Positions 56,241 through 64,000 of a stretch of DNA of 64,000 bases are shown here, in pieces. Every line of letters begins with the position of its first letter. Position 1 is the first letter of the stretch. The stretch comes from Candidatus Harrisonbacteria bacterium (GTDB taxonomy: Bacteria > Patescibacteriota > Minisyncoccia > UBA6257 > 02-FULL-45-10c), in assembly GCA_016192685.1 (NCBI GenBank), contig JACPTS010000001.1, forward strand, positions 458,628 to 522,627, read 5' to 3'. Under the pieces are notes generated by a model. The model saw only the letters and a program-made list of their open reading frames with translations. It had not been told where the DNA came from and made no database searches. A program made the position numbers and the translations under genes.

Positions 56241-56486
56241 ATGACTCGTAATGAACTTATCTTAAAGATTCAAGCGGCTTCCAAAGAGGATGATAAAGAG
56301 TTTCAGGAAATTATCGCCACCCTGCTTGATCAAGGTTTTTTGACAGAAACAGATTTATGCCGAGAGATTGGTGCTTCAAAACCAACTATTCGCAGATGGA
56401 AAGAAGGAAAAAGTTCTCCGCTTCCGTTGATGCGACTACATCTTTTCAAACGATTGATTAAAAAACTTCAAGAAAACGACCTTTAA
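56241..56486 (+). CDS. Hypothetical protein, possible HTH DNA-binding
   Basis: 81 aa; segment TDLCREIGASKPTIRRWKEG is helix-turn-helix-like. Confidence 0.3.
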   Translation: MTRNELILKIQAASKEDDKEFQEIIATLLDQGFLTETDLCREIGASKPTIRRWKEGKSSPLPLMRLHLFKRLIKKLQENDL

Positions 56487-56527
56487 AATAACTTGCGTCA
56501 GCAAGTTATTTTTAATATTCTAAGTTT

Positions 56528-56860
56528 ATGCCTTATATTGCCCCAAAAGACAGAAAAAAGATTGACCCGCTGATTGATAAATTGGCTGGCGCGATTGTAA
56601 AAGAAGCCAAAGAATCTAAATATGACGCCGCTTTTGCCGGTTTATTGAATTACACTTGCACTCGTTTAGCTTTGAAAGTCACCCGGGCTTTGTTCGGTAA
56701 AATGCGCTACTGGATTATTGCCACGGTTATCGGAACTTTTAACAATATCGCGGACGAATTTTACCGCCGGATCGGCCTTCCTTATGAAAATAAACAAATG
56801 AAAAAGAGCGGCGATGTTGATCTTTACGAGGAATATCAAAAGGAAATAGAGTTAGATTAA
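56528..56860 (+). CDS. Hypothetical protein
   Basis: 110 aa, no motif. Confidence 0.3.
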   Translation: MPYIAPKDRKKIDPLIDKLAGAIVKEAKESKYDAAFAGLLNYTCTRLALKVTRALFGKMRYWIIATVIGTFNNIADEFYRRIGLPYENKQMKKSGDVDLYEEYQKEIELD

Positions 56861-56988: not shown

Positions 56989-57277
56989 GCCGATGTAGCT
57001 CAGTGGTAGAGCAACTCCATGGTGGGTCGCAAGATCCTGGGAAGTCAGACTTCCATCCGCCCATTCGCCGAGTAATTGGTGAATGAATCCCGAATAACGG
57101 TTAAAAACCAAGTCAAACTTGGCTAAGACCGTGGCCGCCGTAGGCGGCCCGAACGACTGACAAGGGGCTCCGGTAATTTCGGAGTAAGATACAGTCTAGT
57201 CCTCTTATAATCCCTTATTGGAGAAATAGAGGTGTAAGCGAAGGAGTAGGTCGTCGGTTCAATCCCGACCATCGGCT
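56989..57277 (+). tRNA. tRNA-Thr(GGU) interrupted by a ~217-nt group I intron (exons 56989-57023 and 57241-57277)
   Basis: 5' exon gccgatg ta gctc agtggta gagc a actcc atggt; 3' exon aa ggagt aggtc gtcgg ttcaatc ccgac catcggc t. Exons restore perfect acceptor and anticodon stems. Intron has gactg...cagtc P7-like pairing and a ...AAGATACAGTCTAGTCC segment; omega-G at 57240. Confidence 0.6.
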
Positions 57278-57551: not shown

Positions 57552-57622
57552 GGGGGCGTCGTATAATGGTAGTACAGCGGTCTCCAAAACCGTTAGTCAG
57601 GGTTCGATTCCTTGCGCCCCCG
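57552..57622 (+). tRNA. tRNA-Trp(CCA)
   Basis: gggggcg tc gtat aatggta gtac a gcggt ctccaaa accgt tagt caggg ttcgatt ccttg cgccccc g. Confidence 0.8.
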
Positions 57623-59077
57623 CATTTCAAGTAAAGTGGTAGGTTTTGATGATATTGTTGCAAGTTCTTGATAGCCATTTTTGAATGTAAAACTCGCTAT
57701 TTTTTGATTTCTAATTTTGCAGTTCGAAAGTAAATTATTTAGCAATTCTCTCTTTTCTTCATTTTTTGCAAATTTAAATACTTTTGCCGCTGTTTGTGCT
57801 TTAAAAAAGGCATTTCTCATTTGTTCGAAAGTAATAACATCCTTCTGATCATTTTCATTTGTTTTGGTTTCTAAACTTACTACCTCATTCTGTAGTTCCC
57901 TCATTTTTGATTCATAAACCTCTTTAGAAATGATTCCGGAGATATAAGTGTCTAATAATCTATTCTTTTTATCCTTAACGCTATTAAGCTCTTTTAAACG
58001 CATTTCTTCCATCTTTTCTGAACGATCATACTCAACCTTATATTTTTCTTTGTCAGCTTCAAATGCCAATTCAACCAATTTTTCATCAAACTGAAGTTTT
58101 TGTAGAAGTTTAGAGATAAGATTCTCGGCATCTTTGGAAGTAAGGTGTTTATTCCTTTGGTTGCAGATTCCTTTTCCGTTTGTGCAGTAATAGTAAATAT
58201 ATTTTCCTTTTTGAAGCGTAGCGGTTAGTAGGCATCCACAAACATCACAATTCATAAACCCACGAAGGGGGAAGCAATTCTTTTTCTTTTTTGATTTATT
58301 ATTTCCACCAAGGATTTCATTTGCTTTATCGAATAAATCTTTGCTTATAAGCGGTTCATGATTGCCGCGATAATAAATTCCTTGTTTAAGCATTACCCCA
58401 TAATAAAAAGGATTTCTAAGAATAAAATAAATTGTGCTTTTGGAAATTTTTTGACCAGACTTTGGTCTGTACCCATCTTCGTAAAGTATATCCGCAAGTT
58501 CTTTTGGGGTGTATTTTTCAGTTGCGAACAATTCAAATATTCTTTTAATAACTAATGAGTATTTGGGGTCAATAATAATAGTCTGATTTGATTTGTCATT
58601 TAAATATCCAAAAGGAGCAATGCCTGGCCAACCGCCTTTTTCTAATTTGGCCCTAATACCTCGCTTTACATTTACCGATAAATCATCAACATACTTCTTA
58701 GCAATACCGAAGTCTAAGCTCATCATGAATTTGTCGTCAGAGATATTACGGAATACTTTTTCCGGAGTTTTGATTTCAGTAATTAAACCTCTATCCATAA
58801 ACCAAGATACCTTTCCACCATCTAAGGCATTACGAGCTAAACGATCTAATTTCCAAACTAACAGACCACAATTATTTTTCTTTTCTATGAATTTCAGCAT
58901 TTCTTCAAAGATAGGTCTTCCCGGAGCTTTGGCTGACATGGATTCTTTATAGATTTTAATAACATTTAAACTATCTTTTTTAGCTAAACATAATAGTTCT
59001 GATTCTTGAGAATCTATTGATTGCACCTGACGATCTTCTGCCTCTGATGATTTACGACAATAAATTATATAGTTCAT
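57593..59077 (-). CDS. Large serine recombinase (resolvase/integrase family)
   Basis: N-terminal catalytic domain YCRKSS...QSIDSQ, recombinase domain, C-terminal zinc ribbon CDVCGC...YYYCTNGKGIC; 494 aa. Confidence 0.8.
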   Translation of the reverse strand: MNYIIYCRKSSEAEDRQVQSIDSQESELLCLAKKDSLNVIKIYKESMSAKAPGRPIFEEMLKFIEKKNNCGLLVWKLDRLARNALDGGKVSWFMDRGLITEIKTPEKVFRNISDDKFMMSLDFGIAKKYVDDLSVNVKRGIRAKLEKGGWPGIAPFGYLNDKSNQTIIIDPKYSLVIKRIFELFATEKYTPKELADILYEDGYRPKSGQKISKSTIYFILRNPFYYGVMLKQGIYYRGNHEPLISKDLFDKANEILGGNNKSKKKKNCFPLRGFMNCDVCGCLLTATLQKGKYIYYYCTNGKGICNQRNKHLTSKDAENLISKLLQKLQFDEKLVELAFEADKEKYKVEYDRSEKMEEMRLKELNSVKDKKNRLLDTYISGIISKEVYESKMRELQNEVVSLETKTNENDQKDVITFEQMRNAFFKAQTAAKVFKFAKNEEKRELLNNLLSNCKIRNQKIASFTFKNGYQELATISSKPTTLLEMRGRKESNPD

Positions 59078-59808
59078 AATTTTTCTTTTAAATAAAATTT
59101 CTTTGTGATTTTACCAGTAAAGTAATTTTCTCCAGACCAATTTTTGAATGATTCTTTTTTATCATACCGGCGCTTAAGTTCTTCAGCAAGTTTTCCGCGG
59201 ATAACTATTTCTTTTGGAAATCCGTGAGATATGCGTAGTAGTCGCATCGCATTAAATAAAACTTCTCCAGCACCTTTAGTTATATATTTACTTATATAAT
59301 ACGCCAACTTTCTAGAACCATCAGTCTTTCGCGCATCCACAAAACCTTGTCCCCATAATTTCGCAAGGATTCGGGTTTTACGTTCATCTCCGTAAGAAAT
59401 AATCCGTCTACCAATTTTCGTATCTCCAAGAGACAAGGGCACGTTAAAAACAAGGCCATGAAAATGGATTCGTCCTCGCGGGGAGAGTTCTGGAACAAAG
59501 AGGGATTGGGCTTTAGGAAATTTAGTTTGCAACCGCACTTGGAAGCGGCGAAGGGAATCGTTTGCAAATGAAGCATCTGAGGCGTCACCTTTAAAGGTGA
59601 GCGTAACCAAGAGCGGGCATCCAAATTCTTCAAGAGCAGAAGACAAGCGCCGCACACATATTTGTTTTGTTCGCCAAATATTATCGCGTCTTCGAGGACC
59701 GTATATAATACGCCTTGCCCTGGGAGAGTATACGCGTATTTTGGATGGCTCTTTTTCGGTTTCTGTGATTTCAACGATTTCGCCATATTTTCGATAAATA
59801 ACTGGCAT
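59074..59808 (-). CDS. HUH rolling-circle replication initiator (pC194/Rep_1-like)
   Basis: Motif I LLVTLTF, motif II HFHGLVF (HUH), motif III YYISKYITK (Y..K); 4-nt overlap with the recombinase start. Confidence 0.6.
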   Translation of the reverse strand: MPVIYRKYGEIVEITETEKEPSKIRVYSPRARRIIYGPRRRDNIWRTKQICVRRLSSALEEFGCPLLVTLTFKGDASDASFANDSLRRFQVRLQTKFPKAQSLFVPELSPRGRIHFHGLVFNVPLSLGDTKIGRRIISYGDERKTRILAKLWGQGFVDARKTDGSRKLAYYISKYITKGAGEVLFNAMRLLRISHGFPKEIVIRGKLAEELKRRYDKKESFKNWSGENYFTGKITKKFYLKEKL

Positions 59809-59837
59809 TGATTAAATATCAGTTTTACAACTGTGAG

Positions 59838-59882
59838 GATATATCAAGTCAGGAGGAGTCCTCGCAGAGCGAGGACTCCTCC
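59838..59882 (-). promoter_or_regulatory. Candidate double-strand origin (dso): CTTGATA nick motif adjacent to a 14-bp GC-rich perfect hairpin
   Basis: Minus-strand cttgata (plus-strand tatcaag at 59842-59848), next to ggaggagtcctcgc aga gcgaggactcctcc (59852-59882), ~45 nt upstream of the rep start. Confidence 0.45.
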
Positions 59883-60114
59883 TTCTTAATAGGGAAAACC
59901 CGACAGACTAATCCAGCTAAATTCGCCAAAGACGATAAAAATTCAGCCGCGCCCTCTTTACTAATTGGCCGACCTTTTATTTCAAAATATTGAATTGTTT
60001 TATTGATTAGTTCTTCGCTGAATTGATCCATAAGCAAACTTTAATTTGCCCATTTGACGGAAAACGGGTATAAACTTACAGATAAGTTCAAAATTCAGCT
60101 AACTTTCGTTTTTT

Positions 60115-61044
60115 ATGCTTAAAAAACTATTTGGAAATAAAGTTAAAAAAATACCCAGGGTTTTCCCAAGTGGAGTTTTAACATTTGAAAAATCTGGTCA
60201 CACATTAACTCAAGATAAAAATTTCTATGTGTGTTCTAAAAAACAAAAAGGAGTGTGTGAAAATGATAATGAAACTCGCCTAAAAGCAGAAATTTTTCAA
60301 AGGAATTTTTCTAGATTAGCTATGAAATTTTCTATACCTGACGGGAATCAAGCGTTTCTTTCTAAAAATATGGTAGCCAAAATTTTACATGCTTTTATAG
60401 ATGAAATAACCGAATCCAATTTAGACACCGAGTTTTTTGATACAACTATTGATGTAATGGAGCAAGAATCTGGAATTAATAAAAAACAATATAAAACCGA
60501 CTTTAAAGATGCAAAAAATAGCTATGTAGCCATACAAAATGAAAATACAATATTGCCTCTTGCCTCAATACTTATTTCAGTAATCATAACTTTTATAAGA
60601 CAAGACAAATCAGAAGCAGAAATGGGAGCAGTTCTAGCGTATTTATCCGATAAAGTTTATTTATCTGATAGCGGCAAAATTAACAAAATTAAATTTAACA
60701 AATTAGGAAATTATATAGTGCAATATATTCAAAAATATCTCCCAAACTATGGAAATTCATTTAAGCATTTACTTACTAATGCTGAAAAATTTGAGACTTT
60801 AGAATTTAAAAATGTAGCAAAATTAATACGAAAAGGAGAAATGGATAATTTGCTTCCGTATGATCCATTTCAATCTAGCTATACTATTAGCAAATACATA
60901 AAATTAACCTTTTCAAATATCTTAGAACTAAAACCGGAAAGGGCAATTGATCATTTAAAGTTTCTTGGCTCTGACCTACAATGGTGGGCGATAAATAATT
61001 TATTAAGATTAATTGGAATAAAGCCAGTTAAAAAAGATGAATGA
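60115..61044 (+). CDS. Hypothetical protein (element cargo)
   Basis: 309 aa, AT-rich codon usage, no motif. Confidence 0.35.
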   Translation: MLKKLFGNKVKKIPRVFPSGVLTFEKSGHTLTQDKNFYVCSKKQKGVCENDNETRLKAEIFQRNFSRLAMKFSIPDGNQAFLSKNMVAKILHAFIDEITESNLDTEFFDTTIDVMEQESGINKKQYKTDFKDAKNSYVAIQNENTILPLASILISVIITFIRQDKSEAEMGAVLAYLSDKVYLSDSGKINKIKFNKLGNYIVQYIQKYLPNYGNSFKHLLTNAEKFETLEFKNVAKLIRKGEMDNLLPYDPFQSSYTISKYIKLTFSNILELKPERAIDHLKFLGSDLQWWAINNLLRLIGIKPVKKDE

Positions 61045-61098
61045 ATAAGTTATACTTTAACTAACAATTTAATTGCCTAAACCTTAATTTATTAGGGC

Positions 61099-62361
61099 AT
61101 GGCTAAAAGACCCGATGAAGATACTGAACCCCGCGTTCAGCAACTCTTCATCGGGCCATATTGGGAAACTGATATGGGGTCGCAAGACCTAGCTGGTGCG
61201 GGGTTTAGTATTTATATGGCATTAACTAAATGTAATGAATGTGGCGGAGAAGTATCAGATAAAGCATCTATTTGCCCGCATTGTGGTAATCCAATTCATA
61301 CTGAACCTAACTCAATAATTAACCCCCCACCTTTACCAATTTCAGAAATAAATATAGAAGAAAAACCGGGGATTCTTTTTAAAATTACTTATACAATATT
61401 ATGGATATTTGCTGTATTAATAATAGTTTTTGTTCTCATACTTGTAATTGGGCCATTTATACTCCCAAATAATCTTTATAAAGACCTTATATTACAAGAA
61501 CTGACGAATTCACCAACAAACCTTTTCCAAAAGCAGTGGTGGCAAGAATTTCAACAGAAGATACCACAAACAAAAGATTCTTCCCCAACGTCATCAACAA
61601 AAATTATTTTTAATCCAAAACTTATTTCTGATAGTAAATTTTCATTCTATACATTGAACGTAGGAAAGAACGAAGACCATAATATATCTTATAGAGACGA
61701 GCAAGGAATAATAAAATTACTTAATACAATAAATTATCCACCCAAATTAACACAAAATTTAATCATAATTTTTATAAATCCAGATGATGTAACTTCAGAT
61801 ATGATACTTGTAAATCCGGATAAAACTTGGTTAAATTTTTCTGATAATAGAACTGCAGAGGGTGGGCTTTATGCAACAAATAAAAATTGGCATTGGATTG
61901 AAATTAATAAACCAGTACCATCATTTACTGGAGCAATTTTAATTCATGAGCTCGGTCATCGTGTAGCTACAGAATTAACTCAACAAGAATGGGATAATTA
62001 CTATAAACTCCGAGGTATATCAGCTAATACATCAAGAAATATAAATAATTGGATTTTATCCCCACAAGAAGATTTTGCCGAAGTTTTTAAATATATTTTT
62101 CGCCAAGGAGACCCTAAAATATCCGTAGAATGGCAGATCCGAACTCAATATGGAAATGTTATACCAACAAATGAATTGATTGAACCAGTAATAACGGGAT
62201 GTGATTCTTTATTCGGAAGAGCCGATCAAAAGAAATTACAAAGTTGTAGAAATGCTAATAGCGGAGCGCTCGATTGGGTTGGTAGGCCTTTATATTTTAG
62301 GGTTACTGATTCAGCAACAGAACAATTTATCAGAAATATTATTAAAAGATTATTGCAATAA
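61099..62361 (+). CDS. Membrane-anchored protein with N-terminal zinc ribbon and C-terminal HExxH zincin-like domain
   Basis: CNECGG...CPHCGN zinc ribbon, one TM helix (ILWIFAVLIIVFVLILVIGPFIL), HELGH motif with downstream Glu. Confidence 0.45.
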   Translation: MAKRPDEDTEPRVQQLFIGPYWETDMGSQDLAGAGFSIYMALTKCNECGGEVSDKASICPHCGNPIHTEPNSIINPPPLPISEINIEEKPGILFKITYTILWIFAVLIIVFVLILVIGPFILPNNLYKDLILQELTNSPTNLFQKQWWQEFQQKIPQTKDSSPTSSTKIIFNPKLISDSKFSFYTLNVGKNEDHNISYRDEQGIIKLLNTINYPPKLTQNLIIIFINPDDVTSDMILVNPDKTWLNFSDNRTAEGGLYATNKNWHWIEINKPVPSFTGAILIHELGHRVATELTQQEWDNYYKLRGISANTSRNINNWILSPQEDFAEVFKYIFRQGDPKISVEWQIRTQYGNVIPTNELIEPVITGCDSLFGRADQKKLQSCRNANSGALDWVGRPLYFRVTDSATEQFIRNIIKRLLQ

Positions 62362-62368
62362 TTTAATT

Positions 62369-62842
62369 ATGAAAAATATTGAATTTTCAAGAGAATTAAT
62401 AAAGGGCAGGATTGCTGAAGTAATATTTGAACAAATGATCCGTGAGGAAGAAAAATATACTGTTATACCATTTGGCTATGAGCATACTATGCCCACACTT
62501 GCTCAATACAGGCATCTCGCAGAAATCCCTAAAATTATTGATAATATTGCAGACGCTCCCGACTTCGCTCTTATTTCAGAAAATAACAATGAAATCTTTC
62601 TTGTTGAAGTGAAGTATCAACACAAACTTAATCTCGCCAAACTCGAAGAATATGCTAATAAATTATTAAACCGATGGGACTACCCATGGCTTTTTGTGGC
62701 AACGCTTGATGGCTTTTATTGTGGTTTATGTAAATGGATTGTTGATGAGAAAAAGATCAACAAATTATCAGAAAATTGGGTTACAAAAGAACGCCAAGTA
62801 GAATACTTAGAATTATTGAAAGAATTTGAAAAACAGTCTTAA
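62369..62842 (+). CDS. PD-(D/E)xK nuclease-fold protein
   Basis: Motif PDFALI...EIFLVEVKYQ (D...E-x-K); the ORF-track start at 62201 overlaps the upstream gene, and the ATG at 62369 is preferred. Confidence 0.45.
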   Translation: MKNIEFSRELIKGRIAEVIFEQMIREEEKYTVIPFGYEHTMPTLAQYRHLAEIPKIIDNIADAPDFALISENNNEIFLVEVKYQHKLNLAKLEEYANKLLNRWDYPWLFVATLDGFYCGLCKWIVDEKKINKLSENWVTKERQVEYLELLKEFEKQS

Positions 62843-62907
62843 TTCTTGCTTGATTATCTTAAAATTTAGATATATTATTTATCATGGCTTGAAGAAACTT
62901 TTTAATT

Positions 62908-63549
62908 ATGGACGATGAATTTATCTATACATTATTTTTTACAAAAGAAGAGATAAAAAAGTTTTTGGAAGATTATAGTATACCAGAAACGAAAGATTAC
63001 GAATTTGTTGTCGCAGTTATTTTTCACCATTATTTTTCTGAAAAAAACCAAAGAAATAAATACTGGATTGGTTTCAAAATACGGTTAGATTACTTAAAAA
63101 TTTTACCATCCCGTGGCTCTAAGGAGCCAAGAAAGCTATCAGAAATTGCAGAACTTTTTAGAAAAGGCATTGACGAAAACTCTATTATTGATTTTATTAT
63201 CGCAAAAGAAGTAAATATAAAAAAAGCAGAAGTAAAAACTTTTCAAGTAAAACGATTTGGTATAGGTAGAACAAAAAAAGACACAAATGAATTAATTGCT
63301 TATCTTAAAAATTTATTCATGCGTAAATATGGTAAAAAAGCAAAAACCGATCTTGTTGTTGTTCTAGATAATGGAGTAAACATTGATATGAAAAAATTAT
63401 ATGCCGAGATTAATACAGTTAATAATCCCTTCGATAGAGTATTATTTATATGGTTTGACGATAAGATGGTCTATCTAAGTCATGTATATCCACGAGGCGG
63501 TATAGAGAAGTGTCCGATTATTGATATTTTCCCCACATTAACACTATGA
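62908..63549 (+). CDS. Hypothetical protein (element cargo)
   Basis: 213 aa, no motif. Confidence 0.3.
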   Translation: MDDEFIYTLFFTKEEIKKFLEDYSIPETKDYEFVVAVIFHHYFSEKNQRNKYWIGFKIRLDYLKILPSRGSKEPRKLSEIAELFRKGIDENSIIDFIIAKEVNIKKAEVKTFQVKRFGIGRTKKDTNELIAYLKNLFMRKYGKKAKTDLVVVLDNGVNIDMKKLYAEINTVNNPFDRVLFIWFDDKMVYLSHVYPRGGIEKCPIIDIFPTLTL

Positions 63550-63731
63550 AGCAATAAGATTTACATTATCTTACTTTCTATTAATTTGGTTCGAAAATCG
63601 TTTAATACAGCCCGCCAGCTGATTATTCTTTATTAAGCTATTTTTATTGAGGAATTTTTTCTTGATTTTTGGGTTTTTAAATCGTAGTATACATAAGAAA
63701 GTTCTTTAATAAATTGGGGAGCGCCCATATA

Positions 63732-64000
63732 TGCAAAATTTTGATTTGTTTGCCAGGTTTTTAGTAGAATCAAACTTAATTGAAAATATAGAAGATAATT
63801 TGGATTTTGTCAGGGAAGAATTAAGATGCGGCGCAAAAGACGGCCATGCCGGGGCGATTCTTTATCTGGAAAAGTTAGCACAGGATAAAAGCCATCTGCT
63901 GATTGAGGCGGATATAAAAAAGGTTCAAGGTTTAATTACCAAAGAGCAGGGAGAAAAAAGATTTGATCTTATTTTAAAACCAAAGTGGATAGGCAATTAT
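63732..64000 (+). CDS. Hypothetical protein, 3' partial at window end
   Basis: ATG at 63732 with an open frame to the end of the window (MQNFDLFARFLVESNLIENIED...). Confidence 0.25.

Follow-up and report, generated by a model that had tools for sequence, protein, structure and literature searches.

A probable integrated rolling-circle plasmid-like element with its own large serine recombinase at a tRNA-Trp gene of Candidatus Harrisonbacteria

What kind of element occupies the AT-rich DNA that begins at the 3′ end of a tRNA-Trp gene in Candidatus Harrisonbacteria, a member of the Patescibacteria or candidate phyla radiation (CPR), where a rolling-circle replication gene and a recombinase gene lie side by side? 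The stretch analysed here (the window) covers 64,000 nt of contig JACPTS010000001.1, and its positions 57619-63615 (about 5,992 bp) are probably a small integrative rolling-circle plasmid-like element in its integrated state. Comparison with related loci indicates a core module that consists of a small open reading frame (ORF), a GC hairpin, a 28-nt candidate double-strand origin (dso) motif, a rep gene with an ORF embedded in its +1 frame, and a gene for a large serine recombinase (LSR). The elements of this family are 4-9 kb long, occasionally larger, and the copy in the window looks intact.

The integration target is the tRNA-Trp(cca) gene at 57552-57623 on the plus strand (called by ARAGORN; 63.2 bits with the Rfam tRNA model), whose 3′ end forms the left attachment site, attL. 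Two minus-strand ORFs follow, encoding the LSR in its integrated form of 494 aa (57593-59077) and the HUH rolling-circle Rep of 244 aa (59074-59808), and these overlap each other by 4 nt (ATGA). The LSR ORF also overlaps the tRNA gene by 30-31 nt, where it reads the antisense of the T-arm and acceptor strand. A sequence-only reading of this DNA had proposed an integrated element in which a Rep and serine recombinase operon runs about 30 nt into the 3′ end of tRNA-Trp, and the coordinates, Pfam and ARAGORN agree with it. In particular, the LSR has three Pfam domains, all above their cutoffs (Resolvase PF00239, E=1.5e-17; Recombinase PF07508, E=5.9e-18; Zn_ribbon_recom PF13408, E=2.1e-6), matches the integrase family phrog_95 at 2.3e-86, and carries the R-x-S motif as RKSS, with S10. 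The HUH motifs of the Rep (LVTLTF, HFHGL and YISKYITK) are likewise backed by profiles, with matches to PF23343 REP_ORF2-G2P (residues 66-179; 50.1 bits against a gathering score of 27.8; E=3.5e-13) and to phrog_3419, 'rolling circle DNA replication initiation' (1.1e-10). A Harrisonbacteria metagenome-assembled genome (MAG) encodes a hypothetical protein identical to the Rep. The reported AT-richness also holds: the GC content of the element is 0.324 (cargo 0.304, rep 0.40), compared with 0.431 for window positions 1-57551 and 0.415 beyond the right end.

The pairing of the two genes recurs in a large and apparently undescribed family, which is not described within the literature searched on Patescibacteria serine recombinases, rolling-circle replication and integrative plasmids. 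Homologues of the Rep form at least 251 clusters at 90% identity, with 65-100% identity over the full length, on contigs from ~1 kb to 941 kb, and their source is Patescibacteria wherever an organism is named. A scan of a genome collection gave 26 related loci, all in Patescibacteria MAGs, and a metagenome scan gave 57, with about 90 Patescibacteria loci overall. At every locus where the Rep is at least 57% identical and the downstream DNA can be read, the LSR gene directly follows rep (25 of 25 in the genomes and 31 of 31 in the metagenomes); conservation is 57-75% for the Rep versus 36-55% for the LSR. An all-against-all ORF comparison of 24 elements found only the small ORF (~60-80 aa), rep and LSR common to all, with variable cargo; the other apparent ORF clusters were alternative frames of these three.

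Moreover, family members sit at different tRNA genes and exist as circles. Of the 51 loci in which the LSR stop codon could be read, 29 have a convergent tRNA at or under it, several further loci have LSR tails antisense to a tRNA or a tRNA just outside the scoring window, and three tRNA scans together identified eight targets (Gln, Leu, Lys, Ser, Tyr, Trp, Asn and Gly). Direct repeats of a tRNA 3′ end, 9-19 nt long, were found 4-6.4 kb away on the far side of rep in L008, L013, L019, L022, L024 and L029. Three contigs from three samples (L034, L035 and L036) represent the same 6,521-bp circle opened at different points, with 0 mismatches and k-1 terminal overlaps, and L021 is a closed circle of 5,696 bp. 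The circular forms for which the sequence-only reading had suggested looking are thus present at the level of the family; none was found for the copy in the window. The 6,521-bp circle carries genes for a CD-NTase (DncV-like/SMODS) and for DUF2726, YunG-like and helix-turn-helix (HTH) proteins, a cargo that looks like a defence set of the CBASS kind.

The circles also locate the attachment site of the element, attP. In both closed circles the LSR ends in ..AVW(D/V)DVGT.., and integrated copies encode this peptide at their far end, cut off from the LSR gene, which places attP inside the 3′ end of the LSR gene. The LSR in the window ends in LEMRGRKESNPD before its stop codon, where the last ~10 codons (..GRKESNPD) are the antisense of the tRNA T-arm. 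Its detached free-form 3′ end lies in attR, at 63561-63615 on the minus strand, which was located by the core and a T-arm-like motif and then by the tail-peptide motif. It contains the core CCCGC (63611-63615) and the sequence encoding AVLNDFRTKLIESKIM up to the stop codon, including a T-arm-like TCGAACC; nothing in the 9.2 kb upstream of rep matches the family tail motif except the adjoining peptide, AVLNDFRT. The attL core, CCCGC at 57619-57623, was identified by comparing the two ends, is the only sequence that they have in common, and would contain the crossover.

Several properties then agree on the right boundary. Closing the element in silico yields an in-frame LSR of 502 aa that ends in LEMRAVLNDFRTKLIESKIM (tail LEMRAVLNDFRT..), and the reconstructed target site, attB, is a tRNA-Trp gene with an encoded CCA. 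The GC content rises from 0.30 to 0.415 at 63611-63615, so that GC steps are present at both ends, and the element's length falls inside the size range of the family circles. Further, the distance between TCGAACC and the core is 18 nt in the element half and 13 nt in the tRNA half, and in all four elements that could be scored exactly (the window copy, L024, L022 and L019) GAAC is likewise displaced outward by 5 nt on the element side, an offset read from integrated junctions and not from a recombination assay. Work by Rutherford and colleagues in 2013 reportedly showed that, for serine integrases, the zinc-domain motif lies ~5 bp further out in the half-sites of attP than in those of attB. 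Because of the in-frame closure, the attB with its CCA, the GC step, the element size and the 5-nt offset, 63611-63615 is taken as the right boundary, inside the window and not beyond position 64000, where the sequence-only reading had expected it. The predicted attP is TTCGAAAATCGTTTAATACAGCCCGC|ATTTCAAGTAAAGTGGTAGGTTTTGA (..AATCGTTTAATACAGCCCGCATTTCAAGTAAAGTGG..) and the predicted attB CAGGGTTCGATTCCTTGCGCCCCCGC|CAGCTGATTATTCTTTATTAAGCTAT (..TTGCGCCCCCGCCAGCTGATTATTC..); an empty site would read from tRNA-Trp directly into CAGCTGATTATTC.., followed by a Fic-domain gene whose start at 63731 lies outside the element.

Other candidates for the far end were set aside. A contig of the Logan collection (L001, 12,058 bp) matches the window from 56994 on and reaches 5 kb beyond its end; it contains no long direct repeat of the tRNA 3′ end, and blastn-short found none for the window. 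A CCCGCATT repeat in the Fic gene (L001 7043) was rejected as attR, as the Fic ORF runs intact across it and the tail motif is absent. Early guesses at distal repeats of 9-10 nt in L020, L027 and L018 were replaced by the positions of the tail motif. With regard to LSR tails elsewhere, several remnants of the GVWDEVGT type lie upstream of a single rep in L009 (3711, 6765 and 7189) and in L026 (4921 and 7956), which suggests tandem accretion or decayed older insertions at the same tRNA, and L011 has a free-form LSR tail despite being a 46-kb contig.

Taken together, these features suggest the following cycle. The LSR would recombine attL with attR and release a circle, possibly with the small ORF's product acting as a directionality factor, and circularisation would restore the full LSR gene because attP would lie inside its last ~17 codons. 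The two-tyrosine HUH Rep would then nick the rep-sense strand at CTGACTTG|ATAT and so drive rolling-circle replication, and the LSR would integrate the circle into the 3′ end of tRNA-Trp. One recognition arm of the target would be the near-universal tRNA T-arm sequence TCGAACC, which attP would mimic 5 bp further from the crossover, and the acceptor-stem region would set the choice of tRNA. Integration would rebuild the acceptor stem, replace the encoded CCA, and swap the conserved LSR tail (xVWxDVGT) for one that is antisense to the tRNA.

A more specific proposal, offered only tentatively, is that the integrase is self-switching and retargetable: its xVWxDVGT tail would be encoded only in the free circle, and the T-arm would anchor it at the target while the acceptor stem selects the tRNA. 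T-arm anchoring combined with a choice by the acceptor stem would explain the spread over at least eight tRNA species. Replacement of the tail may bias the LSR between integration and excision, or may lower its activity in the integrated state.

Several points weigh against the plasmid-like account. Nicking, excision, replication, the tail switch and the route of transfer are all inferred, and no gene for cell-to-cell transfer was identified in the element. The cores at its two ends have only 5 nt in common. A degenerate att pattern that matched both junctions in the window found no empty attB and no circular attP of this copy in the metagenome collection, and not even its attL or attR, which indicates that the strain is absent there; contigs that encode an identical copy of a flanking protein, DUF6899, all break before the integration site. 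The att-site model may not fit every member, as L008 and L013 lack a tail remnant and have longer repeats. Finally, the four cargo proteins p309, p420, p157 and p213 have no function assignable from Pfam, PHROG, PADLOC or NCBIfam, or from Foldseek in the case of p309.

The replication protein is of a different type than had been supposed. The sequence-only reading had assigned it to the pC194 family, and the Rep_1 profile (PF01446) gave no match at E<=0.1 in the Pfam scan. In pC194 RepA, a single catalytic tyrosine is preceded one helical turn earlier by a glutamate (E210/Y214), and an arrangement of two tyrosines is that of phiX174 gpA. The catalytic motif of the window Rep has two tyrosines, Y171-I-S-K-Y175, and an alignment of 27 Rep sequences is invariant at T71, F72, H115, H117, Y171, K174, Y175 and K178. 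Since Rep_1 is not matched and both tyrosines are invariant, the Rep is phage-type and not pC194-type. Its nearest relatives outside the family in annotated collections are initiators of microviruses and inoviruses and of Firmicutes rolling-circle plasmids of 1.5-7 kb, all of them weak matches at 25-36% identity over about half the protein. In an exhaustive profile search there was one tight cluster, and the numbers of clusters were 30 at E<1e-30 and 1,907 at E<1e-3; searching solved structures with the Rep sequence returned none at E<=1.

A sister clade of Reps (L081-L085), 51-52% identical to the window Rep, occurs without an LSR. In L082 (5954-10732), and also in L081 and L084, it belongs to an inovirus-like prophage module in Patescibacteria genomes, with rep as the last gene in L082. 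The module of L082 encodes two coat-like proteins (50 and 66 aa; hydrophobic core, basic C-terminus), a 436-aa protein that has hydrophobic stretches at both termini, a membrane protein of 88 aa, and a P-loop protein that matches Zot weakly. L094 is a 5.75-kb circle with a Zot gene (4e-8) and a Rep of 30% identity. A tblastn search with the Zot, coat, p88 and p436 proteins of the sister clade gave no match in the window and none at any Rep-LSR locus.

These relatives raise the alternative that the element is a filamentous-phage satellite, whose single-stranded DNA is packaged into the virions of a co-resident Patescibacteria inovirus with a related Rep and dso, in a manner resembling RS1 and CTXphi; the GC hairpin beside the nick would then be a packaging signal or a minus-strand origin. 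We consider it unlikely. In its favour, PF23343 includes the inovirus gpII, the sister Reps end inovirus-like modules and their origins in L081 and L082 keep the same GACTTGATAT core, the L094 circle joins Zot to a related Rep, the order of hairpin, nick site and rep mirrors the intergenic region of Ff phages, and the element has no transfer genes of its own. Against it, the 64-kb window contains no visible helper phage, coat and Zot genes are absent from every Rep-LSR element of the set and from the DNA next to it, the IMG/VR viral contigs yielded no relatives, the sister-clade dso differs 3′ of the core, and there is no evidence of packaging.

The plasmid-like reading draws further on the origin region. 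The candidate dso, CTGACTTGATATATCCTCACAGTTGTAA, lies at 59825-59852 on the minus strand, with a nick predicted at CTTG|ATA, between 59845 and 59844; within CTGACTTGATATATCC, cleavage would follow CTTG and leave the Rep attached to the 5′ A. Its CTTGATA (59842-59848, minus strand), 33-40 nt upstream of the rep ATG, is where the sequence-only reading had proposed a nick site; the heptamer is present but, with 13 occurrences in the window, is not significant alone, and it is as part of a longer motif that it is conserved in the family. In particular, the extended 12-mer CTGACTTGATAT occurs once in the window and is conserved across the family, and the full CTGACTTGATATCCCCTCAyAGTTGTAA is found at most 150 nt upstream of rep in 62 of 64 members, with most positions 90-100% conserved. 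The motif is conserved as DNA and not as peptide, because some small-ORF tails read through it in one frame and others in another, and some stop within it. Its conservation as the peptide PDLISPHSCK was accordingly rejected, as many members read another frame or stop before the motif, and so was its reading as a sigma-70 promoter, as the TTGATA-TGTAAA spacing is just 12 nt and the promoter scan was silent on it.

The sequence CTTG|ATA is the nick site of both phiX174 gpA and pC194 RepA, and this shared core therefore does not discriminate between the two kinds of origin. The 9-mer ACTTGATAT is that of the phiX174 origin around its nick. In L044 and L045 the dso motif is cut exactly at the predicted nick, with ATATCCCCTCATAGTTGTAA retained and CTGACTTG replaced by unrelated DNA; this is what a strand transfer at G|A would leave, and we take it as a hint, not as proof.

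Abutting the motif is a perfect GC hairpin (59851-59883) with a 15-bp stem and a 3-nt loop, which the sequence-only reading had also picked out. Its folding free energy is between -35 and -41 kcal/mol, with z-scores of about -6 to -7 against shuffled sequences (for a 62-nt segment, -35.3 kcal/mol and z = -6.8). In most of the 29 members that were folded, a long GC hairpin likewise lies just 5′ of the motif, with an unrelated sequence (mean free energy -40.9 kcal/mol, mean z = -3.0), and it is thus the structure that is conserved and not the sequence. Candidate roles are a single-strand origin, a packaging signal or a Rep-binding site.

Could the conserved motif instead be an origin of transfer? 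An integrative mobilisable element, in which the HUH protein serves mainly as a relaxase at an oriT formed by this motif and in which the DNA is moved by type IV secretion, a system widely distributed in Patescibacteria, appears very unlikely. Many mobilisable elements of Firmicutes use relaxases related to rolling-circle initiators, some together with serine integrases (PMC5357655), and most type IV secretion clusters of Patescibacteria have no known relaxase (PMC12102498). PF23343 proteins, however, are known to initiate the replication of single-stranded DNA phages and are not known as relaxases, neither the elements nor the DNA beside them yielded a coupling protein or type IV secretion gene, and the free circles from three samples suggest episomal replication.

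The rep gene of the plasmid-like element also appears to encode a second protein. An ORF of 164 aa from its ATG lies at 59292-59786 on the minus strand, in the +1 frame of rep, with cysteine pairs in YVCGxC, SKCGC and LTCxC. No stop interrupts this frame for 168-191 codons in any of the 53 related rep genes compared. In the first 28 it is open for 171-190 codons from the rep start while the +2 frame has 10-24 stops, and the openness was repeated in 20 further family genes and 5 sister-clade genes, and not in the distant L094. When synonymous codons are permuted, the longest open stretch averages 63-131 codons (P<=0.06 for each gene, mostly <0.01). Moreover, the mean entropy at four-fold degenerate third positions is 0.98 bits up to codon 170 of rep versus 1.69 bits beyond codon 190 (P=0.0002), with 12 invariant or near-invariant sites in the former and 0 in the latter, and the frozen sites include those that encode the invariant Cys and Gly of the +1-frame motifs. 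The ORF has no Pfam or PADLOC match, its database matches are 12 proteins that are all same-frame calls within rep genes of the family, and its AlphaFold2 (AF2) model has a pLDDT of 53.5, too low for use. The most economical reading of these substitution patterns is that the ORF is probably a protein-coding overlapping gene; a frameshift product and a nucleic-acid element are the alternatives.

The third core gene, the small ORF, encodes 60 aa at 59849-60031 on the minus strand, as called on L001. The consensus of its family is FSxxLIxxxIxxFxxExGxxISxExAxEYLxSLAxLYLxFA, without a match in Pfam, PHROG or NCBIfam and without a credible homologue in the inovirus-like sister clade. We infer that it is a putative recombination directionality factor or regulator.

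The remainder of the element is plus-strand cargo, on which PADLOC found nothing and NCBIfam nothing specific. The first gene, p309 (60115-61044), has homologues in L015, L017, L061 and L063 and no family match, and a homologue search with it returned only 4; its AF2 model has a pLDDT of 61.7, and its best Foldseek match in the PDB (E=0.57) is meaningless. Between it and p420 lies a LOOT RNA (Rfam RF03000) at 61074-61190 on the plus strand, which cmscan matched over the whole model (1-121 of 121) with 84.8 bits against a gathering score of 46.4 (E=1.8e-15). The mechanical ORF of p420 (61099-62361) encodes a zinc ribbon, a hydrophobic stretch that is a probable membrane span, and a HELGH domain, with homologues in L023, L025, L061, L076 and L090. 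As the LOOT RNA covers its first 92 nt, the true start is probably M41 (61219); the Pfam and PHROG zinc-ribbon matches begin at residues 38-44. Next, p157 (62369-62842) has a faint likeness to TnsA-like nucleases (PF08722, E=0.038, below the cutoff) and homologues in L019, L049 and L061, and p213 (62908-63549) occurs as an identical protein on 7 contigs, has a homologue in L019 and matches no family. LOOT RNAs also lie upstream of rep, on the opposite strand and within typical element length, in L017, L019 and L005, and elsewhere in three further loci (L025, L026 and L030). A role for LOOT as the single-strand origin is unlikely, as it lies on the strand opposite the nicked one and is present in a minority of elements only.

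This cargo bears on whether the element is a complete prophage of a micro- or inovirus, whose structural proteins would be hidden by divergence among p309, p420, p157 and p213. Such a prophage would fit the 6-kb size, the Rep of phage type, the gene overlap and a nick sequence resembling that of phiX174, as well as the possibly membrane-spanning stretch of p420 and the recurrence of cargo genes in several elements. No ORF of the element, however, matches a capsid, Zot or coat family in Pfam or PHROGs, the putative structural genes are missing from most members, whose cargo differs (the CD-NTase set and HTH regulators), and true inovirus modules are readily recognised in the sister clade; we regard a complete prophage as extremely improbable. 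The suggestion by the sequence-only reading of a phage-like element with single-stranded DNA is thus borne out for the replication module, which is phage-type, and not for the rest, as no structural or morphogenesis gene is present.

The flanks of the element have features of their own. Just outside its right end, the Fic-domain gene (window 63731-64000 and beyond; L001 6738-7370) matches the PADLOC candidate defence families PDC-S04 (5e-21) and SoFic (1.3e-15), and with its intermediate GC content it may belong to a separate small island. Past the last complete ORF of the window, L001 contains Fic, YtxH, metK and other host-like genes. On the left, a split tRNA-like gene lies at 56989-57276 on the plus strand; its acceptor-stem strands match (GCCGATG/CATCGGC), and it has both D and T arms, the latter being GTCGGTTCAATCCCGAC. 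About 210 nt interrupt its anticodon loop, ARAGORN does not call it, the Rfam tRNA model scores 20.6 bits for its 5′ part only, and group I intron models found no match in it. All Logan contigs that cover window positions ~56994-57023 end or start there, from both sides (L001 starts at 56994), and L031-L033 end ~160 nt past the DUF6899 gene, which points to a repeat or to strain variation at the 5′ exon of the split gene. Further upstream, window positions 56241-56860 on the plus strand contain genes for an 81-aa HTH protein and a 110-aa DUF6899 protein between tRNA-Tyr and tRNA-Thr, and this pair within the tRNA cluster may be another small insertion.

The plasmids and integrative elements of Patescibacteria are barely described, and this family, found in several CPR lineages, would be a well-defined native mobile element of the group. 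It offers candidate parts for CPR genetics, namely a small replicon whose origin is defined and a serine integrase whose tRNA attB sites can be predicted; if the self-switching reading were true, it would be a compact native system for replication and integration in bacteria that largely lack genetic tools. Moreover, tRNA genes are the classic targets of tyrosine integrases, and serine integrases with an attP in their own gene and a T-arm mimic provide a natural experiment in site recognition. The shared module of Rep, dso and overlapping gene links these integrative elements to CPR filamentous phages, and the orphan LOOT RNA gains a genomic context.

The integration architecture of the element has a clear precedent in the ssrA islands of Dehalococcoides, where the stop codon of the serine recombinase DsiB differs between the integrated and circular forms (McMurdie et al. 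2011, PMC3146451). In both, an LSR at the edge of the element faces outward, with its 3′ end overlapping attL and the 3′ end of a small-RNA gene, insertion occurs near the T-loop, and a short direct repeat lies at the far end (PMC3146451). The Dehalococcoides islands differ in their target, a tmRNA, in their 20-bp repeat, in a second, small serine recombinase (DsiA) and in their Chloroflexota host, and they have no replication module, unlike the window element.

Actinomycete integrative and conjugative elements (AICEs) of the pSAM2 type, 10-20 kb long, integrate in a tRNA 3′ end, excise, and replicate by rolling circle with an HUH Rep. In contrast to the window element, they use a tyrosine integrase with Xis and an FtsK-like transfer gene. 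Their tRNA integration and rolling-circle replication are mentioned in the study of the Dehalococcoides islands (PMC3146451). The window Rep has a faint, sub-threshold similarity to RepSA (PF20199; E=0.046, 13.3 bits against a cutoff of 34), and no FtsK-like or tyrosine recombinase gene is found among the ORFs of the element.

Filamentous phages (Ff gpII; CTXphi and RS1) are alike in that the Pfam family of the Rep includes G2P and that a hairpin origin lies directly upstream of rep, and RS1 is itself an element of Rep plus integration without morphogenesis genes. They differ in using the host XerCD at dif, where the window element has its own LSR at tRNA genes, variable cargo, and neither Zot nor coat genes. 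With phiX174, the element shares the ACTTGATAT origin 9-mer, the Y-x-x-K-Y spacing and an out-of-frame gene inside the replication gene; in phiX174, genes B and K are embedded within A. In contrast to phiX174 and the microviruses, the similarity of its Rep to microvirus VP4/Rep is ~30% over half the protein, it has no capsid gene, and its +1 ORF is unrelated to B or K. The plasmids pC194 and pUB110 have the same CTTGATA nick core, an HUH motif and a small size, but their initiators belong to the Rep_1 family, with one tyrosine plus a glutamate, and they are not integrative.

Streptococcal integrative mobilisable elements are also small and pair a serine integrase with a relative of the rolling-circle initiators (Coluzzi et al. 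2017, PMC5357655). Their serine integrases insert into protein-coding genes and disrupt them, tRNA targets being those of tyrosine integrases (PMC5357655), and their HUH proteins are relaxases of other families. Overall, the element of the window combines known kinds in a variant form and is not a new category.

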